The notes beneath the pieces are model-generated. The model saw only the letters and a program-made list of their open reading frames with translations, made no database searches and had not been told where the DNA came from. A stretch of 64,000 nucleotides of DNA from Eledone cirrhosa (taxonomy: Eukaryota): positions 50,716,001-50,780,000 of the forward strand of contig OZ024750.1 of the NCBI GenBank assembly GCA_964016885.1. The letters run 5' to 3'. Each line of letters opens with the position of its first letter. Position 1 is the stretch's first letter. The position numbers and the translations under genes were made by a program. Shown here in pieces: positions 13,948 through 59,528 of the stretch.

Positions 13948-16900
13948 CTACAGGATGGTATACAGAGAAGGCCCATTTACACGAGCCATTCTCGCCACTA
14001 TCACCCACCTTTCATAAAACTGCCTGTGGCCAAGCACCTCTCTCTCCATTCTTATCCTTCTTCCGAAGTGATATCGGAAGAAGTAGACCAGACTATGGCC
14101 AGAGAGGAAGTTGCCTGACCTCAGATCTTTCAATCGTGTCCACCAAACAACCTCTTTCAACATGGCTATTACGCACAGAAAAACCGCCTTTGCTTCCTTT
14201 GTGAAGAGGGGAGGCGGTTTGATTGTCATCACGGACTCGGCGGTCAATTTAATCGGCGCCACCCGCGACAGCAGTTGTTCGGCGTAGCCCCACAGATCAG
14301 CCACGCCCGGACATTGCACCAATGCGTGCGCTACGGTTTCTTCGTGACGCACGCATCTAGGGCAAATATTTTTTGAGGGATCCCTGCCCGGGCGCCCGTG
14401 TCTGTAGAGCCTCTCTCGAACGGGTAGAGCCCCTCGGTAGCACTGCCAGGCCAGTGACTTCTGGAAGTTGTCCATTGGTCCTGGGCCGAAAGTCCTACCG
14501 AACAGGCTGGCCAGTTCGTCTTCTTCCATGTCCAGCGACTCTCCAAGGGTGTCATCGCCCCTGCTAGCCACCAGCCCTCTATAGATTGATGAGGTGGATT
14601 CTCCACCGATGGCCTGGCCCGCTTGCCAGAGAGCCCTGAGCGCCTGAGCACACTCAGTGTGCCAGTCTCCCAGTTTTCCGGATTTTTGCTTGACCCAGGA
14701 CTGTAGCTCGGTGAGTGAGACGAGTCTCGGAAAGGCTCGTTTCACGAACGGAGCCCACACCGGTTGACCAGTGAGGAATACCTGTAGGTGCCGTAGCCTT
14801 AATGTGTGCCTACGCATCATCAACCACGGCATCCCCAGCCCTCCTTTCGAAGGTTGTTGGCAGCAGATGGATCTTCTCACCATAGGAGGACGCTTCTTCC
14901 AAAGAAATTGGAAGAGCATGCGTTCCATGGTGGTGAGTGTTTCCTTAGGGCAAGGCACGACAGTCAGGCGGTAGTAAGTGACGGACGCTATGTAAATGTT
15001 CGCCACCTCCGCCCGGCCTTTTAGGGACAGCTTACACTTGGCCCATTTCTGGGTTAGTGCAAACACCTTGTTCGTAACCTCGTTCCAGTTCTTTTCCACC
15101 TGGAGGTCCGGTCCAAACCAGACCCCAAGCAACTTTACCGGGCCCTCCGTCCAGTGTCCGACGACACCGTCAGGAGGCATCGGTTTGCCTCTCCACGTTC
15201 CGAGTTGCAGCCCGATGGATTTTTCCCGGTTCAGTTTCGCTCCTGACAACCTTTCGTACTCCTCCAGTAAGGTACCGATCGCCTCGATCTCCGAGTCGGT
15301 TGATACCATTACTGTTACGTCATCGGCGTAGGCCGACACCGCTTTGCTCAATCCTGGTTCCAGGGGGAAACTCTGCAACAACTCCAACTTCCTCAGTAAA
15401 GGCTCGAGAGTCAATACGTACAGAAGGGAGGAGAGAGGGCACCCCTGTCGAATGGATCGTGTGATTTCGAACGGCTTCGAAAGGTAGCCGTTCACCTTGA
15501 TCCTAGAACAGATGTGGTTGCTATGTAGGGCAGTGATCCAGCCTCTGAAAACAGGACCGAACCCAGCCGCCGCTAGCACCGCATCCAGCTAACCATGGTC
15601 GACCCTATCGAAGGCCTTAGACTGATCCAAGTTGATCAGGGCCCCACCGAAGCCGGGTTTATTGCCAACCCTCTCTATGATGTATCGCATGAGGTGGAGG
15701 TTATCGTGAATGGACCTGGATGGAATAGCACATGTCTGCGCATCTCCCACCAGGCCACCCACGACAAGCGCCAACCTCTTTGCTAACACCTTGGCCAAAA
15801 TCTTTAACTCTGTGTTTAGCAGGGTTATGGGCCGAAAATTATTTATACTATCCCCCTTGTTCTCGTCCTTCCTCACCAGCGTGACTACGCCCTTGGCTAC
15901 AGAACAAGGAATTCTCCCGTTCTGCTGCCAATTGCAGTAGACCGCTTCGAGGAGTTCGGAGAAGAAGACCGGCATTGCTAAATAAAGTTCGTAAGGTATA
16001 CCATCGAGACCTGGAGATTTTCGTCTGCTGCATTGGCTCAGCGCATCTCCGATCTCATCAGCCGAGATTGGTCCCTCGCAGGACTCTGCCTCTTTGTTCG
16101 AGAGACGCGGCAGGCCGTCGAGGTATGGACCGAAATCCACGCCCCGGCCCGGACCCTCGCCTCCCCCGAACAATCGGGCAAAGTGCTTTTGAAAGGCCTC
16201 GCACATCTGCTTAGGCTCCCGGATCACTCGTCCATCTTCGTCTTGCAACGACCGGATGGTGGATCGATTTCCACTCTTAGCTTCTGTCACGCGGGCCCAT
16301 CCAACGGCTTTGGCCCCCTCATTACCTAGAGCACGTATTTTACTTCGAATGACGCAGCCTTCATGCTTTGCATCGAAAAACTGGTTCAAGGCCGTCCTCG
16401 ATGCCAGCACTCTGGCCACATCTTCGCTCTTGATTGCCTCTTCTAATTTACCTGTTAATTCTTTCTCGTTTCTATTCCTATCGGCAGCTAACATCTTGCT
16501 ATAACTTATTGATTCTGTTCTAATCTCTCTTTTGAGAGATGCCCACCATCGGTTGTTGACGATTGCACCCGTCAACCTCTCCTTAACTAATCTGCTAATC
16601 CGGTTTCTGTAAGTCTCTTTTGCCGGTAAAGACAAATTAAGTTTCCAGTAACCTGGACCCTGTCTATGTGTTTTCTCGAGATTCACCACGCAGGTCACTA
16701 ATTTGTGATCCGTGTAGCCAACCGTGCGCATTTCTGGACAGCTTAATATGTCCCTTTCCTTACTTCTAACTAAGAATCTATCTAAGTACGATCTAGATTG
16801 ACCACTGTGGTTTCTCCAAGTCCAGGTAGGCACAGTTGGAAAATCTAGTCGATATCTATCGACCAAGTTAAAACGGTCGAGTAACCCCTTGAGGCTGTTA

Positions 16901-17385: not shown

Positions 17386-17418
17386 GTGGGCGGCAGAGCC
17401 AAAGGAGAGTGTAGAGAC

Positions 17419-19218
17419 CTACCTTTCCGCTTCCCGGGGTTCGGGTTGCACGACTTCCATGGGGTCGGGGGTGTTGGGTGAAGGGGTGTCTTGTGGTGGT
17501 GTGGGGTCGTCAGTGTGTGGTGGGGTTTGGGTGTTTGGAGTTGTGTTGGGGAGGGGAAGGGGAGGGGAAGGGGAGGGGGAAAGCTTTTTAGTAGGACGCG
17601 GTTTATGGGTTTGACAGAGGGTGGTCCTACGTCCTCCTTAAAATCCTTTTTTAGTTTTTGGTAGAGGTTCATTGGGATTTTTATTAGTTTTAAATGTGGG
17701 TGGTTTTCTGACGAAACAAAGTTTACACCTTCGGTTTGTACCGAAGGATTATTGTATATGAGTTCATTTAATTTATTATTGTTTCTGTTGATGTAAGTAT
17801 AGTGTAATGTCTTTTTTTCCGATGGTGTGAGTGTTTCGAAGAGGGGAGGGGCAGGTTTGGTTTTGTTTGTTGCTGGAGGGGTGTTTTCTGTTTTGTTGGA
17901 TTGTGTTGCGATTTGGGTGGGGGTTGTTTGTCCTTGTGTGTTTTGCACATGTTTTCTTTTTTTCCTTTTAATCTGTCTGTAGGACTCCGTTTCTTCCTCC
18001 GAATTCGTTGGGTTATCTTCAGTGTTGGAGGGAAGAGGTATGTTTGCTGGTAATGTTTCCGTGTTGGTTTTCTTTGTGGGGGAGATGGATGTCACTATGT
18101 TAGACTGTGTTGTGTGTTGTGTCTGCGGTGGTTGTGTTGTTTTATTGAGTGAGAGGTTGGGTGGGCCTGTATTTTGTTTTGGGGTAATGTGTTGTGACTA
18201 TTTGTGTTGTGGTGGTGTTGTGGTTTTACTGAGGGACGGGTTGGGTGGGACTGAGTTTTGTTGTTTGTTTATCTGTTGTGGTGGTGGTGGTGGAGCTGGT
18301 GTTGGTAGCAGGGTTTTCTTTTTGTTGAGTTGGGGACAAGCGGCCTTCAGGTGCCCTCTGCCTGCACAGATATGGCAGGACGGCCTTCTTCCTCTCCACG
18401 CTAATGTTTATATACCCGTGGTCCTCTAATAGGATTCTGTCGGGTATTTGGGCGATGCGTTCAGGCTTCATTTGTACTACCAGCTCTATACCTGTTCCAC
18501 TGAACGCATTGCCTGTGGTTTTCCCAATGGAAATCACGTTGTCATTCACTGGATCGATGAAGCCAGCTATGAGCCAGCAGTAGTCCACATCTGGCATCAT
18601 TGCATCCAGCCATATGCGTTGAGTTTTTTTCCCCATATAAGATGGATAAAAGGTGAAATTTTTCGAACGAATCGGTGACAAAGCACATTTTTTTGCCGCC
18701 GATTCGTTCTTCGTGATAATTGCTAGGCTTCCATACAGTCTGTCTTTTCTTATGAAAGTTGTTTCATTCAGTACTTCTGTGAGTACTGTTTTGATATCTG
18801 CTTGAGAAGGCTGTTCAGGTTTTTTTGTACTGTTGTTGATGGTCCGAAACTTGACCGTTCGGCTTTCAATGTCTTTCGTGAATTCTTGAGGCATTTTTAC
18901 CAATAAAATACCATTCTCACCTTCACTTATGTATTGTTTGGCGTCCGTGATCCTTCGTACCACATCTGAAATGTTTTCCGCTATATAAGTCAAAGATTTC
19001 TTTGTTTTCTGTGCAAATGAAATCTTGTCGTCTGCTTTGTTTTCTGATATGGTGTTATTTTCAACTGTTATTTTTTTGTTTGTTGTGTCTTTGTTTGTGT
19101 TATTAGTATTGTCATGCAATTTTTCAAATTTTTTTTTTTCGTTGTTGGAATCCAAGTCCAGATTTATGTTTTCGTCATTTAATTTTTTCTCCGCAGATTC
19201 GTCCGTTTTTATTTTCAT
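17419..19218 (-). pseudogene. E3 ORF1, frameshifted
   Basis: Removing one base near 18393 restores GRRPSCHICAGRGHLKAAC (CCHC). The true end MEVVQPEPREAER* has its stop at 17419-17421. Confidence 0.85.
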
Positions 19219-19592: not shown

Positions 19593-20509
19593 ATTTCTTT
19601 ATTAGCCACAGGGGCACAAAAGAAGGGGACAAATACAAAGGGGGAAGTTTACATACAATAAAAACGTGTAAAATGTTATCACAGATGGAATTTAAAAGTT
19701 AGTCGATTTTCCCCAATAGAGGGAGACAGTTTATATGGGTAACACATACCCCCGAAAAAAATGTGCAACCCTCATCTCCAGGAGTACGAAGAGCTTGTAC
19801 TCCTTTCCTCTCCTCCTCCTTTTCCTCAATCTACAGGCTGATATAGAGAGAAGGCCCATTCACTCGGGCCATTCTCGCCACTTTCACCCACCTTTCATAA
19901 AACTTGCTGGGGTACAGCACCTCTCTCTCCATCCTGATTCTTCTTCCAAAGTGGTATTTGAAAAAAAGAATCAGTTGTTGGCCGGAGAGAAAGGTGTCTG
20001 ACCTCAGCCCTTTCAACCTTGTCCACCATACAACCTCTTTCGCCATAGCTATCACACAAAGGAAAACCGCCTCTCCTTCGTTTTTGAAGGAGGGTGGCGG
20101 TTTGATCATGACAATGGACTCGGTGGTCAACTGGATTGGTCCCACCCGCGACAATAGTCGTTCTACATATCCCCACAGGTCAGTGACGCCCGGGCAGTGT
20201 ATGAATGCGTGCGCGACGGTTTCTTCGTCTCGCACGCACCTCGGACAGATCTTTTTTGCAGGGTCCCTGCCCGGGCGCCCATGTCTGTAGAGCTTGTCTC
20301 GAACTGGTAGAGCTCCTCGGTAGCACTGCCAGGCCAGGGACTTTTGGAAGTTGTCCATCGGTCCCGGGCGGAAGGTCCTACCGAACAGACTGGCCAGTTC
20401 ATCTTCCTCCACGCCCAGAGTTTCACCGAGCGCGTCGTCGCACTTGCTGCGGACCAACCCTCTATAGAATGACGAAGTGGAGTCTCCACTGATCGCCGGG
20501 TCCGCCTGG
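19593..20509 (-). mobile_element. L1/Tx1 copy E4, 5'-truncated
   Basis: Open ORF2 C-terminus 19831-20457; GATA on both sides. Confidence 0.92.
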
Positions 20510-20551
20510 GGTAGTATATAGATAGATAGGTAGATATAGATATATATATAT

Positions 20552-20608
<57 letters not shown>

Positions 20609-20609
<1 letters not shown>

Positions 20610-20951
20610 TTCTTTATTTACCATAAAGGCATAAAAAGAAGGGACAAATACAAAGGGGGAGTTTACATACAATCGAGTAAAAAGGGTATAAAATGAAAAT
20701 AATCGAAAACAACCTCAAAAGGGAGGGGACGTGATGGGGGTTGCACCCCCCCCCCCCCCCCGAAAAAGTGTGCAATCCTTTGCCCGGGGAGCACATGGAG
20801 GAGGTGCTCCCCACTCCTTCACTTCTTTACCTACAGGATGGTATACAGAGAAGGCCCATTTACACGAGCCATTCTCACCACTATCACCCACCTTTCATAA
20901 AACTGCCTGTGGCCTAGCACCTCTCTCTCCATTCTTATCCTTCTTCTGAAG
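20609..20951 (-). mobile_element. L1/Tx1 copy E5, short 3' fragment of the E3 subfamily
   Basis: 3' UTR and ORF2 tail nearly match 13733-14068; preceded by a GATA run. Confidence 0.9.
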
Positions 20952-21118
20952 AGATGTGGGGTGGGGGGCATCAGCAGCAGGGGCAACAATGAGAAGGAGT
21001 AAATACAAGGACAACAATAACAGCGTTAATACAATTAGAATGTAATCTCAACTAGAAATATATATGGTAATAGATTAATATATGTATATAGCACCATACC
21101 ATAATAGTTTAGTGAGTG

Positions 21119-21187
<69 letters not shown>

Positions 21188-24044
21188 TGTTTCTTTTATT
21201 TGCCACCAGGGCATCAAAAGTGGGACAAGTACAATGGAGGGAGTTTACAAAACAAGGCGTCCTCAATAAGGAGGAGGCAATAACAAAATATAAAACTAAA
21301 ATAAAATATAACATAATAAAATTTATAACAAAATCCTCAATAGAGAGGAGGCGCCTTGGGGGATCGCACACACCCCCGAAAAAAAGTGTGCAACCCTTTT
21401 CCTCAGGAGTACAGGGAAAGGGTGCTCCCTTGGTCTTTCATATTCCTCACCTATAGTCTGATGTAGAGTGAAGGACAATTCACACGGGCCATTCTCGCCA
21501 CTTTCACCCATCTTTCACAAAAACGGCTGGGGTGCAGCACCTCTCTCTCCATCCTGATCCTTCTTCCGAAATGATATCGGAAGAAACGGACCAGTTGTTG
21601 GCCAGAGAGAAAGGTGTCTGACCTCAGTCCTTTCAGACGCGTCCACCATACAACCTCTTTCGCCATGGCTATTACGCACAGAAACTCCGCCTCTCCTTCG
21701 TTTTTGAAGAAGGGAGGCGGCTTGATCGTTACAATAGATGCGGTGGTCAACCGGATCGGTCCCACCCTTGACAGCAGTTGTTCGACATAGCCCCACAGAT
21801 CGGCAATGCCCGAGCAGTGTACCAATGCGTGTGCAACGGTTTCCTCGTCGCACACGCATCTGGGACAGATCTTTTTCGAGGGGTCCCTACCCGGGCGCCC
21901 GTGTCTGTAGAGCCTTTCTCGAACGGGCAGAGCCCTTCTGTAGCATTGCCAGGCCAGGGACCTCTGGAAATTATCCATGGGTCCCGGGATGAATGTCCTA
22001 CCGAAGAGGTTGGCCAGTTCGTCTTCCTCCATGCCTAGGGCATCTCCGAGGGCGTCGTCGCACCTGCTAACCACCAGCCCTCTATAGAAAGACGAGGTGT
22101 ATTCTCCACTGACAGCCGGGTCAGCATGCCAGAGAGCCGTGAGCGCCTGGGCACACTCGGTGTGCCAGGCGCCCAGTTTTCTCGGTCTTTGCTTGACCCA
22201 GGATTGCAGCTCGGTGAGTGAGACGAGTCTGGGAAAAGGCTCGCCTCACAAACGGGGCCCACATCGGTTGACCGGAGAGGAATACATGAAGGTGCCGTAG
22301 CCTTAATGCGTGTTTACGTATCATTAACCACGGCATCCACAGCCCTCCTTTCGAAGGGTATTGACAGCAGATGGATCTCCTCACCATAGGAGCCCGCTTC
22401 TTCCAAAGGAATTGGAAGAGTGCGCGCTCCATTTTGGCGAGCGTTTCCCTTGGGCAAGGCACAACGGTCAGGCGGTAGTAGATGACGGACGCTATATAAG
22501 TGTTCTCCACCTCCGCCCGACCTTTCAGGGACAGTTTGCACTCGGCCCACTTCTGCGTCAGTGCAAACACCCTGTTCGTTACCTCACCCCAGTTCTTCAC
22601 CACCTGGAGGTCTGGTCCGATCAGACCCCGAGCAACTTCACCGGGCCCTCCGTCCAGCGCCCGACAACGCCATCGGAGGGCATCGATCTGCCCCTCGACG
22701 TGCCGAGTTGCAGACCGATCGACTTGTCCCGGTTCAACTTAGCCCCTGTAAACCTTTCGTACTCCTCCAGTAAGGTGCCGATCGCCCCGATTTCCGAGGC
22801 CGTCGACACCATTACTGTTACGTCATCGGCGTAGGCTGACACCACTTTCCGCAATCCCGGTTCCAACGGGATGCCCTGCAACGACTCCAACTTCCGCAGC
22901 AGTGGCTCTAGAGTCATTACATACAGAAGGGAGGAGAGAGGGCACCCCTGTCGGATGGACCGCGCGATTTCGAACGGCTCCGAGAGGTAGCCGTTCACCT
23001 TGACCCTAGAGCAGATGCGGTTGCTGTGCATGGCATTGATCCAGCCCCTGAAAACGGGTTCGAAGCCTGCCGCCGCTAGCACCGCATCCAGGTAACCATG
23101 GTCGACCCTATCGAATGCCTTAGATTGATCCAAGTTGATCAGGGCCCCACCAAAGCCGGGTTCGTTCCCAACCCTCTCTATGATGTATCGCATGAGGTGG
23201 AGGTTGTCGTGGATGGACCTGGACGGGAGTCTATCCTTCTGAATGAAGGTGATGTCCTTCATGACGTCTTTTAAAACCAGCTCTATCTCGCTCTGTGATG
23301 GTTGAGCTGGTTTTTTGCTTTTATTTGAGATTGTCCTAAACATGACTGTGTTTAGGAGTCTCTGGCATTTTAGTTCCGGGGGGGGGGGGATCGTGACTGA
23401 ACCATTTTCCCCTTACACTATATATTTTTTGGCATCTGCCAGTAGCTCCTTCGCTTTGGTTATATCTACTGGCAGATAGTCGAGGGTTTTCCTTGCCGTC
23501 TCGGCGAATGAGAATTTTTTTTTGTTTGTGTTGCTGTTGTAGTTGGTGGTGTTGTTGTTATCACAGTTATTGGTCTTGTTGTTGTTGTTATTGTTATTGG
23601 TGTTGTTTTTGTCCGTCGCATTGTTGTTGTTGTTGCTGCTGGTGCCGCTGGTTCTTTGGTTTGTTGCCATGGCAACGTCAAGTTGTCGGTCAACAGGTGG
23701 AAAAATCCTTCCTCTGGCTGACCTTTCTTTTTGACCTCTGCTACTGTGACAGTGGCAGGGGGAAGCTGTAAGCTTATCTTCCCCTTTCCTCCTTCGAATT
23801 TTGGTGAAGATGCTTCAGCCATTTTTATCAAAATAGATTTTTCGAAATTTTTCGAAAGATAAAATTTTTACAACACTATTTCGCCTAAAGGCGTAGAATA
23901 TTTTGAGAGACTGACCAGATCAAAATTTGACCTGGCAGTCTCTCTACAAAATGGTACAGAAATGAAATGAAAGTTTACAGTTCACAATTTCCAGATAAAT
24001 TTAAACGAAACTTACCGAGCGAGCTCAGCACATGTGTCTATCCC
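21188..24044 (-). mobile_element. L1/Tx1 copy E6, both ends intact with an internal deletion of about 2.9 kb (E9 subfamily)
   Basis: ORF1 ...ITFIQKDRL is joined in frame to ORF2 PSRSIHDN... at about 23228. GATA runs at 21118-21187 and 24045-24074. Confidence 0.92.
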
Positions 24045-24074
24045 AGATAGATAGATAGATAGATAGATAGATAT

Positions 24075-24897
24075 ATTTCTTTATTAGCCACAGGGGCACA
24101 AAAGAAGGGGACAAATACAAAGGGGGAAGTTTACATACAATAAAAACGTGTAAAATGTTATCACAGATGGAATTTAAAAGTTAGTCGATTTTCCCCAATA
24201 GAGGGAGACAGTTTATATGGGTAACACATACCCCCGAAAAAAATGTGCAACCCTCATCTCCAGGAGTACGAAGAGCTTGTACTCCTTTCCTCTCCTCCTC
24301 CTTTTCCTCAATCTACAGGCTGATATAGAGAGAAGGCCCATTCACTCGGGCCATTCTCGCCACTTTCACCCACCTTTCATAAAACTTGCTGGGGTACAGC
24401 ACCTCTCTCTCCATCCTGATTCTTCTTCCAAAGTGGTATTTGAAAAAAAGAATCAGTTGTTGGCCGGAGAGAAAGGTGTCTGACCTCAGCCCTTTCAACC
24501 TTGTCCACCATACAACCTCTTTCGCCATAGCTATCACACAAAGGAAAACCGCCTCTCCTTCGTTTTTGAAGGAGGGTGGCGGTTTGATCATGACAATGGA
24601 CTCGGTGGTCAACTGGATTGGTCCCACCCGCGACAATAGTCGTTCTACATATCCCCACAGGTCAGTGACGCCCGGGCAGTGTATGAATGCGTGCGCGACG
24701 GTTTCTTCGTCTCGCACGCACCTCGGACAGATCTTTTTTGCAGGGTCCCTGCCCGGGCGCCCATGTCTGTAGAGCTTGTCTCGAACTGGTAGAGCTCCTC
24801 GGTAGCACTGCCAGGCCAGGGACTTTTGGAAGTTGTCCATCGGTCCCGGGCGGAAGGTCCTACCGAACAGACTGGCCAGTTCATCTTCCTCCACGCC
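24075..24897 (-). mobile_element. L1/Tx1 copy E7, 5'-truncated, apparently identical to E4 over its length
   Basis: Identical ORF translations at a 4482-bp offset; followed by GATA at 24898-24982. Confidence 0.92.
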
Positions 24898-35527: not shown

Positions 35528-35799
35528 AGACTTACCACTTTCCTGTAAACAAGTGCTATTATGCCTCATATCATGTTACCTTATTTTATTTGATGAGAAC
35601 ACAATTTTTGTCCTAGGATGATTTTGTATTCGAAATGCGCATAATAAAATATATGGAACACTTTTAACCATCTTTTAATTTCTTCTTTATTATATATAAT
35701 CCAGTTCTACCAATTGTTGAGTGCTACTTTTCTGATATATGCATAGTCTTATTGTTCTACAATATTACTCACCTTCTACACATATATATATATATATAT

Positions 35800-37705
35800 G
35801 GAGGAGATAACAATGGATCCAGGAACCAACCTGAGACCTGATTGACGTACAGAAGAAGGCGAAAGTTGAGCGAGATTCGGCCAAATCGGAGAAAGACCAA
35901 AGGAAAAGAAGTGCCGCATGCCGCCAAATCGACCGACTAGTAAAGTGAAGCTGCCGGTGGGACAAAGTCGTCTGGCTGAAAAAAAAAGGTGCCGAGGCAA
36001 AGGAAGCTGCTGCTCGCAACGACGCGAAAACATTGTTCCACGTCGTGAGAGAGTAGAGTGGCGCTCGGTCGTGTGGTGCCAACATGCCAGCGAAGGAAAA
36101 ACATTGCAAGACAGTGTCCACTGCAGTAGAACAGGACCAGAGATGGATGGAAATCATTTGGGAGACGTTGAACCAACCAGATTCATTTGGCCTATTATAT
36201 TTGACCGCAGAGACGCCAGCAACTGCTGCAGTACTCAAGGTCTGCGACGACCAAATCACCAGGAAGGTTATGAAAGATGTGATCAGTGACTTGAGCAACG
36301 GCAAAGCAGGTAGGCTGGATGAGATCTCTACAGAGTTAATCAAATTCGGTGAGGATAGCATGATAACGAACGGCCTCGACAAACTTGATGAACCATTGCT
36401 GGAGGGTTAGTCGGGTTCCTCTTGAGTGGCAACGCGATGTCATCTTCAAACTGCCGAAGAAGGGAAACCTGGCCAACTGCAACAACTGGCGTGGTATCAC
36501 ATTGCTGTCAGTCCCAGGCAAGGCGTTCTAAACTCTGCTGCTGCGTTGACTCCGGTAGGCTATCGACGCTGTGTTCCGGAAAGAACAGGTCGGTTTCCGA
36601 AACAATCGAGTTTCCACCGAACAGATCTTCACACTACGCAACATCCTCGAAAATTGCGTTGATCTCCCGCACCCTTTGGCGGTCATCTTCATTAATTTCC
36701 AGAAGGCATTCGACAGTGTGCATTGGGAACCACTGTGGAATATCAAGAACTCGTACGGCATTCCTGGGAGATTCATTGTCATTTTCAAGGCCCTGCACGC
36801 AAACTCTAGCTGCTGCGTGCGAACTGAGTCCGGTGAGACGGAGTTCTTTAACATTGTCTCCGGAGTCAGACTAGGTTGCATTCTCTCTCCGCTGTTGTTC
36901 CTGTTGGCAGCTGATTTTGAGCTAAGGAGAACAGAGGAATCCCATGGACAGGCCAGTCGAGGCTGATGGACTTGGCATTCACCGACGACATCGCTTTGAT
37001 TGTTGAAGACAGTGCAGACCTGCAAACCCTAACATCCATGCAAGAGAGTGCAGAAAAGATCGGCCTGAAAATCAACACAAAAAAGATCAAGGTGATGAGA
37101 ACAGTCAACAACGCAGGTCCGGTGATTAGAGTCAACCAATATGACCTGGAAGAAATCGATCACTTCATCTATCTAGGCAGCATCCTGGCAAACAATGGCG
37201 ACGCTGAGCTCGACATCAACTATAGGATCGGCAAAGGAGCCGCAGTTTTCCAGCGGTAGCGCCCAGTCTGGTCGTCTTCATACATCAGCACCAGGAACAA
37301 ACTGCGCCTATACAAGAGAATCGTGCTGTCGACAGTGCTTTACGCGAACGAAACCCGGAAGAGCACGGCAAAGATAGAGAGACGGCTGAAGACCAGCGGT
37401 GCTTGAGAGCGATCCTTCGTGTGATCTGGTGCGACCGAGTGCTAAACGACGAAATACTGCTGAGAGCCAAGTTGTGGACCCTACAAAGAAGCACCGGTAC
37501 CACCTGGCTGGCCATATTCTGCACCTGCCTGACGAATTACCTTCCAAAACAGCAATGAACTTGACTCCACATGGCGACAAACGGAGGTGGGGTTGCCTCA
37601 GGATCTCCAGGCGATGAACATTCCAAAAAGAACTGATGGCAGCCAACATCACTTGGCACGGACGCGAAAAGGCCGCCGCTGATAATGACCGTTGGCGATT
37701 ACTTA
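35800..37705 (+). mobile_element. Decayed RTE-clade LINE (RT and 3' end)
   Basis: KLPKKGNLANCNNWRGITLLSVPGK, EQVGFR...EQIFTLRNILE, FQKAFDSVH, GVRLGCILSP, FTDD, RYHLAGHIL. Confidence 0.85.
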
Positions 37706-39086
37706 CTGTAGTTGCTGGTGTTAGAGAGATCTCTCTTTGGCACTGGGATGGTATTACTGATCCTCCACTGATTCAGAGCAACCCCTCTCCCAGTGCCTGG
37801 TTACAGAACTACAGGATGATATCAAAATCACACCTCTTAATCACCTCTGATACAACTACATCTTCTCCATGAGCCTTACCCTCCTTGACGTCATTTGTGG
37901 CAAAGACCCTCAACAGGATGATTCTTAACAGGATCCAGCCTGAGATGGAGAAGAAGCTCAGGGACAACCAGAACGACTTCTGAGAGGGAAGATCAACTAC
38001 CAGTCACATCCTGATGCTGAAGAAGATATTAGAGGGAGCTAGGGAAAAGAGCCTTCCTTCCGTCATGGTTCTCATTGACTTTAGGAAGGACTTTGATTCT
38101 GTTGACCGTCACTGCCGGATAAGGATCTTAAAGGCTTATCGAATCCCCAACAAGATAGTGGACCTGATATCACTGCTTTACATCAACACCACAGCTCAAG
38201 TCATTACATCTGATGGGATGACGGAAAACTGTGAGATACTGGCTGGAGAGCTCCAGGGAGATACATTGGTTCCCTAACTATTCATCATCGCAGTGGACTA
38301 TTGTATGCGCCTTGCGCTGGAGAAACACCAGGACTCTGGCTTTACTGTATCACTGGCTCGAGCAGGAGAGTTAAGGTGAAAAAGATATCAGATGCTGAAT
38401 TTGCTGACGACATAGTTCTGGTGACAAACACAGTTAAGGAGGCAGAGGATTTAATGCAGGGGGTGGAGACTGTGTCGATTAGTGTGGGGCTGAGAATGAA
38501 TGAGATTAAACGAAGTATCTGGTAGAGAAAATTAATAAGACAGAGAAGACTATGAATGTAGGCGGGAAGCCGCTAGAATCAGTTGAGGACTTCCTGTATC
38601 TGGGAGCAAATATTGGGAACACAGAGGATGATGTGATTGAGAGGAAGATCAAAGCCTGGGCGGCGTGCCGCAGTTTATGATCGATGTAGAAGTCGGACCA
38701 TCGTAAATACCAGAGGAGTCTGTGCTACTATATGGGTCTAAGACTTGGACGCTGACCAAGAAACTCACTCAGAAGGTGGATGGATGCTACACGAGAATGC
38801 AAAAGATGGCTCTGAACATTAATCAGTATACAACGAGGATAAAGAACTCAGAGGTGTACCGGAGCCTCTCAAAAGTCGGTTCGAAAGTAACAACGAATTT
38901 ACACTGAACTCGGTGCTCCTGTGGGAGCCCCTGCATGGACACACTGGAAGAGGGAGACCGTGAGTGGCATATGTTGATGCCGTAAGGACAGACAGTGGTC
39001 GCTGGGAGACGCAGGACATAGCGGTGATGATGAAAGACAGAAACCACTGGAGAGAACTCGTCCATGGTTCTTGGGAATTTTACCCG

Positions 39087-41419: not shown

Positions 41420-43783
41420 ATTTGTCCTGGATCCCTGATTTACAAACAACGCAGTGCTCATCCACAATGTAAAGGTGACATCAACGTTGTTTTTGGATCA
41501 TAACTTAGTAGAACTAATGATATGTGGTCCGAGAGAGTCAACAGAGTAACAACCATCAAGAAGCACCGGGAACTTATCCAACCTTAACTTCTGCAAGACT
41601 AACTGGAAAAAGATCAAGAAAGAGATCCGGAAGCAAATATGGAGCGCCAACATCACCACACAAGACACCAACACACATTTTCGACATTTCATGACAACAA
41701 TACAAACTATATGCCATAAGTTTGTCCCGGATAAAAAGGCGAACGGATACAAAACTGTTATTCCCCGAGACAGGAAAATCCTTATGAGACGAAGAACTAA
41801 GCTCTCAAACCACTTGAATGCAAAACAAGACAACAAGAAGGAATCATATTTAAAACGTGCACTCAAACTTTCCCATGAAAGGGAGAGGGCAGAGAGAGAA
41901 ATTAGGGCCATAGAATATGTTAAAACAAACACTAAGGCCTTCTTTAAATTTGCAAAAGAGACTGCCTCAGTACACTGCATGATTGGGCCACTTTTCCATA
42001 AAGATGGTTCATCAACCGAGGATCTCCAAGGGATAAGTAAAATACTGAATGAACCGTACAATAGTGTGTTCACACGTCCACTGAGGCACATGCACACATC
42101 AAAAACACAGAGAATTTCTTTGATGCCACACCACTCCATGAAGAAATGGTGACCATCAACCACATAGACATAACGGAGGAAGATGTGGTATCCGCCATAG
42201 ACGAAATTAGAACAAACTCAGCTGTTGGACCTGATGGATTACTAGCAGTCCTCTTAAAAATATGTAAACGGGCCTTAACAACTCCACTGACGACCCTCTT
42301 CAAAAGCTCGTTGGCTAGCGGTAAACTACCCATAGAGCTGAAAGAAGGCACAATATGCCCTATCCATAAAGGAGGAAGCAGAGCGGAGGCCAAAAACTAC
42401 AGGCCAGTCTTCATATTAGTGTAATCATGGGGCGAATCATCAGAAAGAAACTGATCATGTCCCTCGAGGAGAATGACCGTCTGACGAGCACGCAGCATGG
42501 CTTTCACCCAGCAAGAAGCTGCCTTACACAGCTGCTACAACACTACGAATGGGTACTGAAACAACTGCTAGACAGCGCACGTGTGGACTAGATATAACGT
42601 GACTTTTCGAAGGCTTTTGACAAGGTCGACCACGGAATGATATGTCACAAATTACACAGACTCGGCATAACTGGAAACGTAGGTGAGTGGCTGCATTACT
42701 TCTTAACAGACAGAAGCCAGACAGTTGCAGCAAATGGGCCGCTCTCAAAGAAAACGTCAATAACAGGTGAGGTGCCCCAGGGCACAGTCTTGGGACCACT
42801 ACAGTTTTTAGTGGCTCTCACAGACATGCCCTCTGTAGTACATACAACATCCCTCACTAGCTATAATGATTACACTAAGGTAGCACAGGCAAACAAAAAC
42901 CCGGCTGATGCTGCCCTTTTACACAAGATGTGGATGCCATATACAAATGGGCTGACGACAACAACATGCACTTTAATGCTGGAAAATTTCAATACCAACC
43001 TGCACACACAAATACAGTACAACACAGCTACACTGGACCAGGAGGGATCGAAATTCCCGTGTCGAAATTGATACGAGACCTGGGAATATACATGAGCGAT
43101 GATGCATCTTTTTCCTCATACATCATAAAGGTGGCGACAATGTACAGACGACTAGCTGACCGGATCTTGAGGACTTTCCGGACAAGAGACCGAGAGACCA
43201 TGTTGATACTATGGAGGACATTTGTCCTAAGCCGCCTGGACTATTGCTCACAAACATAGTATCAGACTAACTACGGTGCTTGAGGCAATCCAACGAAGCT
43301 ACACCAAGAGGATTGCGACGACGATGAAGGAGATTAGCTACTGCGAGAGGCTAAAAGTACTGTACCTCTATTCCTTGGAACGAAGACGGAAAATCCTGGA
43401 GGGGCTAGCACGAAACTTTGGCATTGGGAGCTGGACCAACCTCCAAAGGTCAAAGGTCCCATCTTCCACATCTAGAATAAGGAGCAGATATTGCAATAGC
43501 CTTGGGTTCAAGGCCCTCAACTCTTCAACAATCTGCCAAGGGATTTGAGAGATCTGCATGGTGTTGACGTGGATGTTTTCAAGACACATCTCGAAACCCT
43601 GCTATCCAGGTTTCCGGATGAGCCCACAACACGGTACGAATGTAACCTAAGAGCAGCAGCAAAGAACTCCCTCTTGCATCAATGGCCAGTCAACACAGGC
43701 TGGAGACAGTATGTGTAGGAGCAAGGGTGGTGCTCCAGCATGGCCTCAGCTGGATGGCTTGAACGGGTAAAAGAGTAAAAGAG
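41420..43783 (+). mobile_element. Decayed CR1-group LINE ORF2
   Basis: SAVGPDG...PIHKGGSRAEAKNYRPV, QHGF..SCLTQLL, DFSKAFDKVDH, VPQGTVLGP, RDLGI, YSLERRR; 3' tail GTAAAAGAGTAAAAGAG. Confidence 0.85.
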
Positions 43784-52394: not shown

Positions 52395-52673
52395 ATAGAT
52401 AGATAGATATATTTCTTTTATTTGCCACTAGGGCATCAAAAGTGGGACAAGTACAAAGGGGGGAGTTTACACAAAAAGGCGTCCTCAATAAGGAGGAGGC
52501 AATAACAAAATATAAAAATAAAATAAGATATAACAAAAAATAAGATTTTTAACAAAATCCTCAATAGAGAGGAGGCGCCTTGGGGGGTCGCACACCCCCC
52601 CGAAAAAAGTGTGCAACCCTTCTCCTCAGGAGCACAGAGAAGGGGTGCTCCCTTGGTCTTTCATCTTCCTCAC

Positions 52674-55600
52674 CTATAGTCTGATGTAGAGTGAAGGCCC
52701 ATTCACACGGGCCATTCTCGCCACTTTCACCCATCTTTCATAGAAACGGCTGGGGTGCAGCACCTCTCTCTCCATCCTGATCCTTCTTCCGAAATGATAT
52801 CGGAAGAAACGGACCAGTTGTTGGCCAGAGAGAAAGGTGCCTGACCTCAGTCCTTTCAGACGCGTCCACCATACAACCTCTTTCGCCATGGCTATTACGC
52901 ACAGAAACACCGCCTCTGCTTCATCTTTGAAGGGGGGAGGCGGCTTGATCATTACAATAGACTCGGTGGTCAACCGGATCGGTCCCACCCTTGACAGCAG
53001 TTGTTCGACATAGCCCCACAGATCGGCTACGCCCGAGCAGTGTACCAATGCGTGTGCAACGGTTTCCTCGTCGCACACGCATCTGGGACAGATCTTTTTG
53101 GCGGGGTCCCTACCCGGGCGCCCGTGTCTGTAGAGCCTTTCTCGAACGGGTAAAGCCCCTCGGTAGCACTGCCAGGCCAGGGACTTCTGGAAGTTGTCCA
53201 TAGGTCCCGGGCTGAATGTCCTACCGAACAGGCTGGCCAGTTCGTCCTCCTCCATGTCTAGGGCTTCTCCGAGGGCGTCGTCGCACCTGCTGCGTACCAG
53301 CCCTCTATAGAATGTTGCGGTGGAGTCTCCACTGATAACCGGATCCGCCTGCCAGAGGGCGGTGAGCGCCTGGGCACACTCAGTGTGCCAGGCGCCCAGT
53401 TTTCTCGGTCTTTGCTTGACCCAGGATTGCAGCTCGGTGAGTGAGACGAGTCTGGGAAAGGTTCGTCTCACAAACGAGGCCCACACCGGTTGTCCGGTGA
53501 GGAATACGTAGAGGTGCCGTAGCCTTAATGCGTGTTTACGCATCATTAGCCACGGCATCCCCAGCCCTCCTTTCGAAGGGTGTTGACAGCAGATGGATCT
53601 CCTCACCATAGGAGCCCGCCTCTTCCAAAGGAATTGGAAGAGCGCGCGCTCCATCTTGGTGAGGGTTTCTCTTGGGCAGGGCACTACGGTCAGGCGGTAG
53701 TAGATGACCGATGCTATGTAGGTGTTCGCCACCTCCGCCCGACCTTTCAGGGATAGTTTGCAACTGGCCCACTTCTGGGTCAGTGCAAACACCCTGTTCG
53801 TAACCTCCGCCCAGTTTTTCTCCACCTGGAGGTCCGGTCCGAACCAGACCCCGAGCAACTTCACCGGGCCCTCCGTCCAGCGTCCGACGACGCCATCGGA
53901 GGGCATCGGTCTGCCCCTCCACGTGCCGAGTTGCAAACCGATCGACTTGTCCCGGTTCAGCTTAGCCCCTGTGAACTTTTCGTACTCCTCCAGTAAGGTG
54001 CCGACCGCCTCGATTTCGGAGGCCGTCGACACCATTACTGTCACGTCATCGGCGTAGGCCGACACCGCTTTCCGCAATCCCGGTTCCAAAGGGATGCCCT
54101 GCAACAACTCCAACTTCCGCAGTAGTGGCTCGAGAGTCAACACATACAGAAGGGAGGAGAGAGGGCACCCTTGTCGGATGGACCGCGCGATTTTGAACGG
54201 CTCCGAGAGGTAGCCGTTCACCTTGACCCTAGAGCAGATGCGGCTGCTGTGCATAGCAGTGATCCAGCCCCTGAAAACGGGTCCGAAGCCTGCCGCCGCT
54301 AGCACCGCATCCAGGTAACCATGGTCGACCCTATCGAACGCCTTAGATTGATCCAAGTTGATCAGAGCCCCACCAAAGCCGGGTTCGTTCCCAACCCTCT
54401 CTATGATGTATCGCATGAGGTGGAGGTTGTCATGGATGGACCTGGACGGGATAGCGCATGTCTGCGCATCTCCCACCAGGTTTCCCACGACAAGCGCCAA
54501 CCTCTTTGCTAGCACCTTGGCCAAAATCTGTAACTCTGTATTTAGCAGTGTTATGGGCCTGAAGTTACTTATTTCGTCCCCCTTGTTCTCGTCCTTCCTC
54601 ACTAGCGTGACTACGCCCTTGGACACAGAACAGGGAATTCTCCCGTTCTGTTGCCAGTTGCAGTAGACCGCCTCGAGGAGATCGGGGAACAAGTCCGGCA
54701 TAGCTAGATATAATTCGTAAGGAAGACCATCGAGACCCGGGGATTTGCGTTTGCCGCATTGGCTCAGCACGTCCTCTATCTCAGCGGCCGAAATCGGCTC
54801 CTCGCAGGACTTCGCCTCCCTGTCCGAGAGGCGCGGCAGGCCGTCGAGGTATGGACCGAAGTCCACGTTCCCAACCGGCTCCCCGCCCCTCCCGAACAGT
54901 CGGGCAAAGTGCCTTTGAAAGGCCTCACACATCTGCTTAGGCTCAAGAATCGCCCGTCCATCCAGGTCTCGCAAAGACCGGATGGTGGATTTAGTTCCAC
55001 TGTTGGCCTCTGTCACGCGGGCCCAGCTAACAGCTTTGGTCCCCTCGTTCCCTAGAGCACGTATTTTACTTCGGACAACGCAGCCTTCGTGCTTCGCGTC
55101 GAAAAACTGGCTCAAAGCCGTTCTCGACGCTAGCACTCTGGCCACGTCGCCGCTTCTAATTGCCTCTTCTACTCTATCTATTAGCTCCCTTTCCTTCCTA
55201 TTCCTATCCGCAGCTAGAACCTTACTAAATTCTATCGAGACTACTCTAATCTCTCTCTTTAGAGATACCCACCACCTGCTGTTGACGATCGCTCCAGTCA
55301 ACCGTTCCTTAACTAACGTACTAATCCGATTCCTGTAGGCTCTACTTGCCGGCAAGGACAAGTTGAGCTTCCAGTAACCGGGGCCCTGTCTATGAGTTCT
55401 GTCAAGGTTGACCATGCAGGTCACTAATTTGTGGTCTGAATAGCCAACCATGCGCATTTTTGGACAACTTAAAAAGTCCTTATCCTTAATTCTAACTAAG
55501 AACCTATCTAGGTACGACCTAGATGATCCGCTACGATTTGCCCAAGTCCAGGTTGGCGCAGTCGGAAAATCTAGTCGATATCTATCGGCCAGGTCAAATC

Positions 55601-56111
55601 GACCGATTAACCCTTTGAGGCTATTACACCCCTCTCTATCGGGGCAGGCCCCTACGTAGTCCCAGCGTGCATCTAGGATACCATTCCAGTCCCCCACTAA
55701 TAGCAAGGAGCGGGACGTCCCTAGAAAAGTCTCCAGACGATGGAAGAAGTCCGGCCGCATTGACCCGAAAGGGCCGTAGGCGGCTACCAACCTAAACGCT
55801 CCGCCTTTACCACTGCCAAGGTCCAGAACCACTAGTCGACCCTCCGGGTCCAAATGTACCATCTGTGTTGCGAGACCCAGATGTTTTTGCAGCAAAACGA
55901 CAACTCCACCCCCACCTCCGGGCTGACAGAGAGATGCGTGCATCTCAAAGTCATCAAAGGTGGGGGCCAGCTGTCGCACGTTGCTGATCCGGGCCTCGCA
56001 AATAACCATCACATCTATACGTTGTGACCTGAGGTCATTTAGAAGCATTGCTTGCTTCCAAGTTGAGCCCAGGCCACGCGCATTTAAACAGCCTACTCTT
56101 AGCATAGCCAT
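52674..56111 (-). CDS. ORF2 polyprotein, 1145 aa: APE endonuclease, reverse transcriptase and C-terminal CX2CX8HX4C zinc-binding domain (L1/Tx1 clade)
   Basis: Uninterrupted frame from ATG at 56111. Motifs LNARGL, ICE, GDWN, SYLDR, SDH, GYWKLN, NFRPITLLN, LDQSKAFDRVDH, QGCPLS, YADD, LLGV, GGLG and CPRCVCDEETVAHALVHC. Confidence 0.95.
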   Translation of the reverse strand: MAMLRVGCLNARGLGSTWKQAMLLNDLRSQRIDVMVICEARISNVRQLAPTFDDFEMHASLCQPGGGGGVVVLLQKHLGLATQMVHLDPEGRLVVLDLGSGKGGAFRLVAAYGPFGSMRPDFFHRLETFLGTSRSLLLVGDWNGILDARWDYVGACPDREGCNSLKGLIGRFDLADRYRLDFPTAPTWTWANRSGSSRSYLDRFLVRIKDKDFLSCPKMRMVGYSDHKLVTCMVNLDRTHRQGPGYWKLNLSLPASRAYRNRISTLVKERLTGAIVNSRWWVSLKREIRVVSIEFSKVLAADRNRKERELIDRVEEAIRSGDVARVLASRTALSQFFDAKHEGCVVRSKIRALGNEGTKAVSWARVTEANSGTKSTIRSLRDLDGRAILEPKQMCEAFQRHFARLFGRGGEPVGNVDFGPYLDGLPRLSDREAKSCEEPISAAEIEDVLSQCGKRKSPGLDGLPYELYLAMPDLFPDLLEAVYCNWQQNGRIPCSVSKGVVTLVRKDENKGDEISNFRPITLLNTELQILAKVLAKRLALVVGNLVGDAQTCAIPSRSIHDNLHLMRYIIERVGNEPGFGGALINLDQSKAFDRVDHGYLDAVLAAAGFGPVFRGWITAMHSSRICSRVKVNGYLSEPFKIARSIRQGCPLSSLLYVLTLEPLLRKLELLQGIPLEPGLRKAVSAYADDVTVMVSTASEIEAVGTLLEEYEKFTGAKLNRDKSIGLQLGTWRGRPMPSDGVVGRWTEGPVKLLGVWFGPDLQVEKNWAEVTNRVFALTQKWASCKLSLKGRAEVANTYIASVIYYRLTVVPCPRETLTKMERALFQFLWKRRAPMVRRSICCQHPSKGGLGMPWLMMRKHALRLRHLYVFLTGQPVWASFVRRTFPRLVSLTELQSWVKQRPRKLGAWHTECAQALTALWQADPVISGDSTATFYRGLVRSRCDDALGEALDMEEDELASLFGRTFSPGPMDNFQKSLAWQCYRGALPVRERLYRHGRPGRDPAKKICPRCVCDEETVAHALVHCSGVADLWGYVEQLLSRVGPIRLTTESIVMIKPPPPFKDEAEAVFLCVIAMAKEVVWWTRLKGLRSGTFLSGQQLVRFFRYHFGRRIRMEREVLHPSRFYERWVKVARMARVNGPSLYIRL

Positions 56112-56135
56112 GTTGGTGGTGAAGAGAAAGGGCAC

Positions 56136-57929
56136 TTACCTCTCTGCGTCCCGGGTATCGGGCTGCACAATTTCCATTAGGGAGGGGGACGGGTTGTTGG
56201 GTGGGGTGGTGGTTTGTGGAAGTGTGGGGGCATCAGTGTGTTGTGTGGTTGGGGAGCTTGGAGTTGTGTGGGTGTTTGGGGAGGGGGTGGGATAGTTTTT
56301 TAGGAGGACGCGGTTAATGGGCCCGACGCAGGGGGGACCCACGTCCTCTTTAAAATTGTTTTTTAAAGTTTTATAGGTGTCCTGTGGGGCCTTAATCATT
56401 TTGAGGTGGGGGAAATCCCCTGCCTGGGTGAAGTTAGGCCCTTGTGTGTTTTATTAGATTGTTGTTGTACACAATGTTTAACAGTTTTTTGTTTCTTGTA
56501 TTTATGTATGTGTATGCATGTTTTTGTTTTTGTGTGGTGTTTTTTGTTTGCTGTTGTTGTGAGCTCTTTTGTGTTGGTGTCAGTGTTATGTTTTGGGGAG
56601 GGTTTTTTTTCATTTGTGTGTCTGAGGTGTGTTTTCTTTTTTTTCTTTTGATTGTGTGGAAGTGCTCCTCCTCGTCTGACGACGAACTAGGGTCATCTTC
56701 CGCGTTGGAGGGGAGGGGTATATTTTCGGGTTGTGTTTGCGGTACGGGTGTTTTGGAAATTGTTTTTGTTTTTTGAGTGGAGGGGATGGGTTGGACATTG
56801 TTTTGTTTTGGTTTGAGCTGTGGTGGTTGTTTTTGTAGTGGTTGTTGTGGTGATTGTGTTGGTTGTGCAGTTGTTGGTGGTGTAGGCAGGATTGGGGTTT
56901 TCTTATTAAGTTGGGGACAGACAGCCCTCAGGTGACCTCTGGTTCCGCAGAGGTAACACGAGGGCCGTCTACCCTCAACGGTAATGTTGATGAAGGTTAG
57001 ATCATCCAGTATGACGCGTTCAGGGATCTGGGCGATCCTTTCGGGCCTCATTTGAACTACAAGTTCGAGGCTCGTTCCACTGAACGCGTCACCCGATGCC
57101 TTTCCCATGGACACCAGCATGTCATCCTCCAGGTCCAGAAAACCTGTCAAAACCCACCATATGTCCATAATCGGCAGGATGGTGTGGATTTTTATTTTTT
57201 GTGTTCTTCTACCCATGTACGTAGGGTAGAAGGTGTATGCGGTGGATGTGATTGGTTTGATGGACAGTTTCACTGCTGTGTCCCTGTCCTTCATGAGAAT
57301 GGATAGACTCCCGTAGAGTCTATCCTTCTGAATGAAGGTGATGTCCTTCATGACGTCTTTTAAAACCAGCTCTATCTCGCTCTGTGATGGTTGAGCTGGT
57401 TTTTTACTTTTGTTCGAGATTGTCCTAAACATGACCGTGTTTAGGAGTCTCTGGCTTTTTAGTTCCGGGGGGGAATGGATTGTGAATGAACCATTTCCCC
57501 GTACACTATATATTTTTTCGCATCCGCCAGTAGCTCCTTCGCTTTTGTTATATCTACTGGCAGATAGTCAAGGGTTTTCCTTGTCGTCTCGGCGAAGGAG
57601 AAATTTTGTTTGTTTGTGTTGTTGTTGTCGTTGGTGGTGTTGTTGTTATCATTGTTGTTGTTGTCACCGTTATTGGTCTTGTTGTTGTTGTTATTGTTAT
57701 TGTTATTGGTGTTGTTTTCGTCCGTCGCATTGTTGTTGTTGTTGCTGTTGCTGCTGATTCTTTGGGTTGTTGCCATGGCAACGTCAAGTTGTCGGTTAAC
57801 AGGTGGAGAGAATTCTTCCTCTGGCTGACCTTTCTTCTTGACCTCTGCTACTGTGACAGTGGCAGGGGGAAGCTGTAAGTTCATCTTCCCCTTTCCTCCT
57901 TCGAATTTTGGTGAAGAAGCTTCGGCCAT
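56136..57929 (-). pseudogene. E9 ORF1 (Asn/Thr-rich N-terminus, CCHC knuckle), about two frameshifts
   Basis: Pieces 57459-57929, 56434-57432 (CYLCGTRGHLRAVC) and 56136-56399 (...MEIVQPDTRDAER*). The frameshifts could be real or assembly errors. Confidence 0.85.
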
Positions 57930-59528
57930 TTAAAAAAATATTGACTTTTCAACAAGAAAAAACTTTTTTTTTTGTTTAACTATTTCGCCCAAAGGCGTAG
58001 AATATTTTGAGAGACTGACCAGATCAAAGTTTGACCTGGCAGTCCCTCTACAAAATGGTACAAAAATTAAAGTTATCAGACAAGAATTTCTATAGAAATT
58101 TAAACAGAACTTACTCAGCAAGTTATACGCGTGTGTCCATCCCAGATAGATAGATAGATCAAACAATATATTAATATGATCGATCCTCCGAAACGATCGT
58201 AAAGCAATGATAGGAATAAGTAAAGTAACTTGATTTCACTGGATTACTCGCCATCGGATTACATTGAGTTCTATCTCACGGTACGCACCCTACCACTAGA
58301 GGTATACCATACTGAAATATATATATATATATCTATATATATAATTCCCGTTCTGTGTGTGTGTGTAAAAGAGTTTCACTTGGAAAATATTCCATCGATC
58401 TCTGTCAAATTAAACACATAGCCAAAATAGGTTTGTAACATCAAGAAAAAATTATTTCATAATGATTAATTTCGAAGTCACAAACTTCGATTTTATAATC
58501 TTATAGACTTTTGCACTAACAAATTCCATGACGGCCATAAACAGAGAGAGCGTTCCTTTTACACACTTCTTAACTCTCCCCCTTCCACAACACGACGTTA
58601 TGGGATTGTATGTGTATGTGCGTGTGTATATGTGTGTGTATGTGTTTGTGTGTGTATGTGTGCGTGCATGTGTGTGTGTGTGTAATTTCCATAACGGCCA
58701 GAGAGAGAAGGATGTGTGAGAGGGAGATAGAAAGAGAGGAGTGAGAGATAGAGAGAGTAAAATAAAGAAAGAGAGGAGTGTGTGACGCGAATATGATAAA
58801 TACAGCGTTTATAATTTTAACTTATTTATTACACATCTTAACTCTCCCCCTTCCACAACGTCACGTCTTGGGATTGTGTGCGTATGTGTGTGTGTGTATG
58901 TGTGTGTGTTTGTGTGTATGTGTGTGTATGTTTGTGTGTGTATGTGTTTGTGTGTGTGTGTACATGATGGATGTTTTAAAATACACATTGTTCAACCGAC
59001 ACGGCTAACGATACATTTCTCTATGTTCACATTTTAATGACACATATCTGTAAATAAAACTTGCTCTTTTTGAATACCGTCTCATTTTTTTTTATTGAAA
59101 GAGTTGATCAGGTAAAATTATCCTCCAAGTTAAACATACAACACGGAAATTGACCATTAACATTGCAGCCTTACCAAGAACTGACACCGTCCAATGGACG
59201 GGGGTCATTTGCTAGTATATATATAATTCTTATTACTCTTTTACCTGTTCCAGCCATCCGGCTGAGGCCATGCTGGGGCATCGCCATATATATATATATA
59301 GATATATATATGCATATACATTCTCAAATAGTATACACAGTACATGAGAATTGTTTGAAGGGCAAACATGGCTGTGGAATGCTCAGTTATTTGCGCACAC
59401 AAACTGTTCTATGTATCAAACGACGGAACCCCAACATGGCGACGATTCTGTGTTGATGAATTTATTTTGAATGTAAAGTGAAGTCAATACACATACATTA
59501 CGTTATTATTTAGCATATCACGGTGAAA

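Follow-up and report, generated by a model that had tools for sequence, protein, structure and literature searches.

We analysed a 64,000-nucleotide (nt) window of the Eledone cirrhosa assembly GCA_964016885.1 (contig OZ024750.1, positions 50,716,001 to 50,780,000 of the forward strand), which contains copies of a long interspersed nuclear element (LINE) of the L1/Tx1 type, among them the full-length element E9 (52410..58143, minus strand). The motif at the end of the first open reading frame (ORF1) of these elements is a real, selected 5' splice donor, and it is functional, being spliced in RNA to a downstream host exon. As to its role, we tentatively propose, while recognizing that this may well prove wrong, that the likeliest purpose of the donor is to let a fraction of the transcripts lose ORF2 by splicing, so that an mRNA with ORF1 alone is made alongside unspliced genomic RNA.

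The sequence-only reading of this window had noted that ORF1 of three elements ends in an arginine codon and a stop which together form a donor. All three sites are present on the minus strand, namely GAG^GTAAGT in E9 (56134..56142, first intron base 56139, overlapping the ORF1 stop and found in 903 genomic copies; the caret marks the splice boundary), AAG^GTAGGT in E3 (17417..17425, base 17422) and AAG^GTGAGT in E2 (11696..11704, base 11701). The claim that the three subfamilies use three different stop codons stands only in part, since the TGA of E2 is present in this copy but is mostly private: 16 of 19 other E2-family loci have the family form GTAAGT and none has GTGAGT. Of 2,000 dinucleotide shuffles, 5 produced, in the same 75-nt window, a match of at least eight letters to the nine-letter donor consensus. 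In the representatives scored, E3 excepted, no donor elsewhere in the element scores higher than the ORF1-end site.

Copies were picked by a coding motif at the start of ORF2 and only then read upstream, which avoids circularity. The first such pattern gave 3,247 matches, and 29 of the 30 loci read carry G^GTA(A/G)GT; the second gave 5,597, with G^GT(A/G)AGT in 28 of 30, one locus having CAG^GTAATT and another having lost the site by deletion. All 25 loci from a protein search possess a donor matching at 8 of 9 positions, and a donor lies at the ORF1 end in each of 11 lineage representatives. Among these, positions -1, +1, +2, +3 and +6 are invariant and positions -2, +4 and +5 agree in 10 of 11; the flanking positions agree in only 4 to 9. 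Four-fold degenerate sites between the E9, O and P lineages are 42-47% identical, and divergence at synonymous sites among the 11 lineages reaches about 55%. The donor is in phase 2 of ORF1 in E9, E3, E2, G, H, P1, P2 and Q (the Q representative is a deleted copy and does not enter the tree). O, O2 and P3 have it in phase 1, F and O3 in phase 0, with ORF1 continuing 9-12 codons beyond it in these last two; the phase is fixed by long open ORF1 frames in F (614 codons) and O2 (at least 487). The earlier description of the donor as the arginine-stop end of ORF1 is therefore right for E9, E3 and E2 but not for F, O3, O, O2 and P3. Since it is kept in three phases across diverged lineages, it is the splice signal, not the arginine-stop, that is conserved, and the conservation of the donor across families, which had been suggested as a check, was found irrespective of stop codon and phase.

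We consider it very unlikely indeed that a donor-like stop context arose by chance in one ancestor and was passively inherited. All lineages do share an ancestor, and distant L1/Tx1-like loci lack the pattern (among 80 metagenome loci, 42 of them with an ORF of at least 700 amino acids, a donor-like motif was present in 1 of the 14 with readable upstream context, and TAG in 7 of 32 closed ORFs). Yet five positions invariant in the face of such divergence, and in three phases, largely refute the idea, and a strong donor that captures host exons should presumably be lost if it were useless. An apparent donor-less family, suggested by matches with a changed +6 letter, was rejected, 13 of the 19 fetched being a look-alike inside the reverse transcriptase (RT) region of lineage O.

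It is also improbable that the motif is a translation signal, for termination and re-initiation at ORF2, which merely resembles a donor and is spliced by accident. A pyrimidine-rich spacer always follows it, 45-70 nt before a conserved endonuclease motif, and in lineage F an ATA replaces the ORF2 ATG and overlaps the ORF1 stop, which suggests coupled translation. The conserved letters, however, are exactly those of a 5' splice site and are independent of the stop codon, which shifts by up to 12 codons, and the spacer from ORF1 stop to ORF2 ATG (24 nt in E9, 56112..56135, minus strand) varies in length, from 23 to 33 nt in G, E9, E2 and E3, and has no fixed frame. This varying frame also rules out in-frame readthrough of the ORF1 stop.

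The donor is used in RNA. When contigs of run X4 were aligned to positions 55960-56480, the contig covering 56140-56225 branched exactly at the donor (56140), one way into the intron (56049-56169) and the other into unrelated letters. These non-element letters have a single occurrence in the genome, where they begin directly behind a T-rich acceptor with ACAG at its end and make up an exon of 67 nt, with GT next to it. Part of the host protein RRP36 is encoded in this exon (PF06102, E = 4.5e-4), two more RRP36 exons lie downstream, and an E9-type donor is situated 2,187 nt upstream on the same strand, so that the join spans a GT-AG intron. The joined form is absent from the assembly, all 14 copies with a letter other than G after the exon end being point changes or a one-letter insertion. 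Such an exact GT-AG join to a host coding exon is the product of splicing; it identifies X4, which like the other runs was not recorded as RNA, as RNA, and shows that the donor is live, acting here as the functional GT donor of a U2-type intron; the joint rests on one contig of this one run, of which 30 loose letters were read.

Around this locus, a cluster of sense-oriented elements lies just upstream of the RRP36 coding exon (G000:C14:40238814-40244300; loci L258 and L262), and the element donor is joined to that exon so that exon and ORF1 tail share a reading frame. With at least 255 letters of the X4 contig beyond the joint, there is a hint that no rival host exon from upstream was present in the assembled RNA; a normal upstream RRP36 exon was searched for and not found. 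An element-type ORF2 end inside the RRP36 intron has AAG instead of TAG, and the locus therefore provides no test of acceptor skipping.

Under our tentative proposal, the donor of an intact element would pair with whichever usable acceptor comes first ahead of the poly(A) signal. In most lineages this would be the TAG of the ORF2 stop, and in P1 and P2 probably a T-rich CAG of the 3' untranslated region (UTR). The spliced product would end ORF1 in its last exon and supply ORF1p in excess; it would make no ORF2p and would thus not be copied back into the genome, and a weak acceptor would leave most RNA unspliced. U1 bound at an unused donor may in addition protect the long RNA, as in plant copia elements. 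In E9 the predicted intron spans all of ORF2 (3,466 nt, 52674..56139, minus strand) and the predicted second exon is the 3' UTR (52417..52673, minus strand), which ends at AATAAA. Of the intron of about 3.47 kb bounded by the two stop codons that had been put forward earlier, the motifs, the length and the live donor are in place, but the junction from donor to ORF2 stop was not seen.

The TAG^G acceptors named earlier at 52674, 13948 and 8514 are indeed there, on the minus strand, as candidate sites at the ORF2 stops of E9 (52674..52697), E3 (13948..13971) and E2 (8514..8537). In the window, ORF2 ends in TAG in 10 of 10 cases, followed by G in 7 and by A in 3; these ends include four in further truncated or deleted copies (19831..24315, minus strand; stops at 19831, 20831, 21451 and 24313), two of which read TAG^A. 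The stop is TAG in 12 of 14 lineages. As for the product, E9, E3, F, O, O2, O3 and P3 have a stop within three codons after the predicted junction; in G, H, E2 and Q the frame would be lengthened by 27-100 codons. The idea that ORF1p would be left unchanged applies to E9 and E3 but not to other lineages, and E2 would, as foreseen, gain an extension. In P1 and P2 the T-rich CAG lies 158-179 nt into the 3' UTR, and splicing to it would extend the frame by 19 codons up to a stop; P3, which has no such CAG, retains TAG, and Q has both.

A series of observations, on the acceptor, the product, the RNA and the genome, weighs against this proposal. P1 and P2, the most numerous lineages found, stop ORF2 in TAA in 6,902 copies, so that TAG is not the universal ORF2 stop that it had been taken for, and the sequence-only reading had itself named many TAA or TGA stops as refuting its proposal, which is the case here for a sister lineage. 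Its pyrimidine-rich stretch before the acceptor turns out to be weak, with 4-8 T in 16 nt (in E9, 10 pyrimidines of which 4 are T), where two host RRP36 acceptors have 9 T, and on a crude pyrimidine score of the downstream AGs the stop-codon acceptor ranks first only in F and joint-first in E3. Over the last 20 codons (60 nt) of ORF2, conservation across 13 lineages extends to synonymous sites, and the TAG may therefore be carried in an RNA element with another job. Stops near the junction occur in 7 of 11 TAG lineages where 4.4 were expected, which is marginal (permutation P = 0.056; the lineages are related and each entered the count on its own). A stop in phase 1 is retained by P1, P2, Q and E2, which have phase-2 donors.

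On the RNA side, spliced E9 RNA would share GT with the start of the intron and should hence branch at 56137; no contig running from ORF1 to the 3' UTR was found among the X4 contigs, where the contig 56049-56169 is unbroken, and the depth of the bin 56122-56139 (65.8) equals the sum of two unspliced contigs. Neither was an ORF1-to-3' UTR joint seen among the 15 of 232 X4 joints listed, and runs X1, X5 and X6 gave nothing on this junction among the matches listed. X4 is a single run available as contigs only, and contigs drop rare variants; assemblers remove short low-depth links into high-depth sequence, the kind of link that this junction would form. This negative is for those reasons a weak one, and depth differences along the element were left unused, as contig depth cannot rank parts of a gene.

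The genome likewise gave no retrocopy lacking exactly the ORF2 interval, the search for which had been suggested as a check. Among 907 E9-type donors (903 + 4) none is joined to the 3' UTR, and among 2,449 E9-type ORF2 ends (2,441 + 8) none is joined to a donor. Of the 49 matches to a broader pattern covering E9, G, H and E3, none reads as the predicted second exon, 19 of them having been fetched; the one match in lineage F is an insertion, not a spliced copy. No spliced copy was found for the 4,477 intact donors of P1 and P2, nor among the matches read from variant searches in these lineages (20 of 64, 25 of 72 and 6 of 6). Trans-complementation is, in the available portion of one report, low-level for human L1 (PMC5860796), and RNA without ORF2 would need it; the absence of retrocopies therefore lowers the proposal only a little.

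The same features could be explained if the donor were kept for binding of the U1 small nuclear ribonucleoprotein (snRNP) without internal splicing, to block premature cleavage and polyadenylation or to govern nuclear retention or export, with splicing to host exons as a side effect. We regard this as a serious alternative, though on balance a doubtful one. It fits a donor that is universal and an acceptor that is not, and 10 of 11 representatives carry A(A/T)TAAA upstream of the donor, within about 140-510 nt of it. It fits, too, a 67-nt GT-AG segment in the E9 5' UTR (58048..58114, minus strand), which has the shape of a textbook intron and is retained in genomic copies: 808 have the acceptor G and three lack it, all by point changes (where the first exon of a family ends in G, this test is blind to spliced copies), and one contig of X4 runs across the acceptor unspliced. 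U1 has this second role in the Arabidopsis element EVD, as far as the available text goes (PMC5580714). Downstream, on the other hand, none of the 11 representatives has a poly(A) hexamer within 900 nt of the donor, and in E9, H, E3 and P1 the whole of ORF2 is free of them; nor would U1 binding explain the exact ORF1-end position in every lineage, or TAG in 12 of 14 lineages together with a replacement CAG in the other two. ORF1-only splicing and U1 protection are compatible, both operating in EVD according to the same partial source (PMC5580714). Segments similar to that of the E9 5' UTR are present in E2 and E3.

A far less probable use of the donor is to open a mini-intron of 42-59 nt whose removal would fuse ORF1 to ORF2 in frame. 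Lineages with a phase-1 or phase-2 donor do have an AG of compatible phase within the opening codons of ORF2, and in Q the ATG is preceded by a branch-point-like motif, a pyrimidine tract and TAG; yet F and O3, with donors in phase 0, lack a compatible AG, and joining at the Q site would be out of frame. Such an RNA would moreover encode ORF2p and be copied in cis, yet no intron-less copy was found, and X4 shows no such joint over 55960-56480.

If the ORF2 splice is real, the closest parallel is the shGAG transcript of EVD, a Ty1/copia element, which in the available portion of its description likewise has a conserved U1 site after the structural gene and divides its RNA into a spliced form for the structural protein and an unspliced form that is the genome, U1 also preventing premature termination (PMC5580714). 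EVD is a long terminal repeat (LTR) element with one polyprotein frame and a short intron, averaging about 300 nt, that is linked to early polyadenylation (PMC5580714), whereas the LINE described here has two separate ORFs and its predicted intron is all of ORF2. The human L1 SpIREs and SpORF2 also arise from functional splice sites, and their protein-lacking spliced RNAs depend on low-level trans-complementation; there, as far as these partly available sources describe, the donors are in the 5' UTR, splicing removes the 5' UTR or ORF1 and keeps ORF2, and spliced copies are present in the genome (PMC5860796, PMC2896524). Here the donor is at the end of ORF1 and no spliced genomic copy was found. 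Drosophila TART is likewise a non-LTR element with subgenomic and spliced RNAs; in the accessible part of that report its introns are short and in antisense RNA, unlike the predicted ORF2 intron (PMC1636488). Compared by description, the L1-Tx1 elements of Octopus vulgaris are also recently active in a cephalopod, and the available portion of that text contains neither "splic" nor "intron" (PMC13282606).

In the literature searched, to which subscription papers, Repbase entries and supplements were largely external, no LINE was described with ORF2 spliced out from a donor at the ORF1 end. This analysis contributes the joint seen in RNA, a survey of donor phases, retrocopy counts for the whole genome and the lineage with TAA stops. 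LINEs are held, in the accessible text of one report, to make both proteins from one unspliced bicistronic RNA, splicing being harmful (PMC5860796). A strong donor kept through deep divergence and phase changes implies that the lineage must gain something from U1 or the spliceosome, and either outcome, an ORF1-only mRNA or a splicing-independent role of U1, would be a new control point for LINEs. Host transcripts can, as seen at RRP36, be rewired by these donors, of which over 5,000 are intact. The wider picture, which we offer as a conjecture short of an even chance, would be that, in a lineage with thousands of young copies, the whole RT gene is an alternatively spliced intron through which the host spliceosome sets the ORF1p:ORF2p ratio, that the acceptor is re-tuned when the stop-codon AG is lost, and that live donors spread by the thousand and, as a by-product, capture host exons.

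The elements belong to the L1/Tx1 group of LINEs, possessing an ORF2 with an N-terminal APE endonuclease, RT and a C-terminal cysteine-rich region, and a separate upstream ORF1 with a nucleic-acid-binding motif; the assignment is to this group by domains, and membership of the Tx1 clade in the strict sense is a possibility with which the target-sequence preference described below agrees. E9 is about 5.7 kb long, has (TATC)n repeats on both sides and comes from a young family, the best 40 of 1,577 first-look genome candidates being 99-100% identical. Its ORF1 (56136..57929, minus strand) carries two frameshifts in this copy; in the intact copy L224 it has 597 amino acids and one CCHC knuckle, and in four intact copies 587-697 amino acids with one C-x2-C-x4-H-x4-C motif each, the Pfam zf-CCHC match (E = 0.05) being below the Pfam cut-off. 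The E9 ORF2 (52674..56111, minus strand) is intact, with APE endonuclease (PF03372), RT (PF00078) and zf-RVT (PF13966) domains, and its closest solved relative is human L1 ORF2p (E = 3e-48); ORF2 of E3 carries an in-frame stop. A scan of viral contigs found no relative of the element.

Eight element ends in the window adjoin (TATC)n, and the printed P-type and Q ends run into (ATT)n. The Tx1-clade families Kibi, with (TC)n, Koshi, with (TTC)n, and crocodilian families, with (TTCC)n, are likewise described in the available text as two-ORF APE-RT elements that insert into simple repeats (PMC4494074), and differ in target from the (TATC)n and (ATT)n seen here. The P lineages ending in (ATT)n and the E9 type in (TATC)n represent a target switch inside one clade (L280, L281, L282, L286 and L290), and these same copies stand in tandem stacks about 6 kb apart.

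At the ORF2 end, 52674-52736 and its homologs have conserved last codons followed by GC-rich inverted repeats in the 3' UTR, and are likely a cis-acting RNA element. The stop context TAG^GTRRG in E9 (52671-52676), E3, F and O also resembles a donor; a donor-like sequence directly after an acceptor is the shape of a recursive splice site. Ten of the 30 loci from the first ORF2-start pattern belong to lineage F (including L154, L156 and L157) and combine intact ORFs with ATA for the ORF2 ATG in an A-TAG overlap; AUG-independent, coupled translation of ORF2 in a young family is possible. In lineage Q (L236, L285 and L215) the spacer has a branch-point-like motif, a pyrimidine tract and a TAG six bases before the ORF2 ATG, and this TAG is a possible acceptor for an ORF2-only mRNA.

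An E9-family copy at 22121-24060 has a large internal deletion that joins early ORF1 to mid ORF2, not at splice sites. Some 45 kb upstream of RRP36, on the same strand, lie exons (G000:C14:40284900-40307800) that resemble those of a spectrin gene. Elsewhere in the window, 35765-37772 and 41550-43071 hold open frames resembling other retroelements, with an RT-like frame at 42598-43071.

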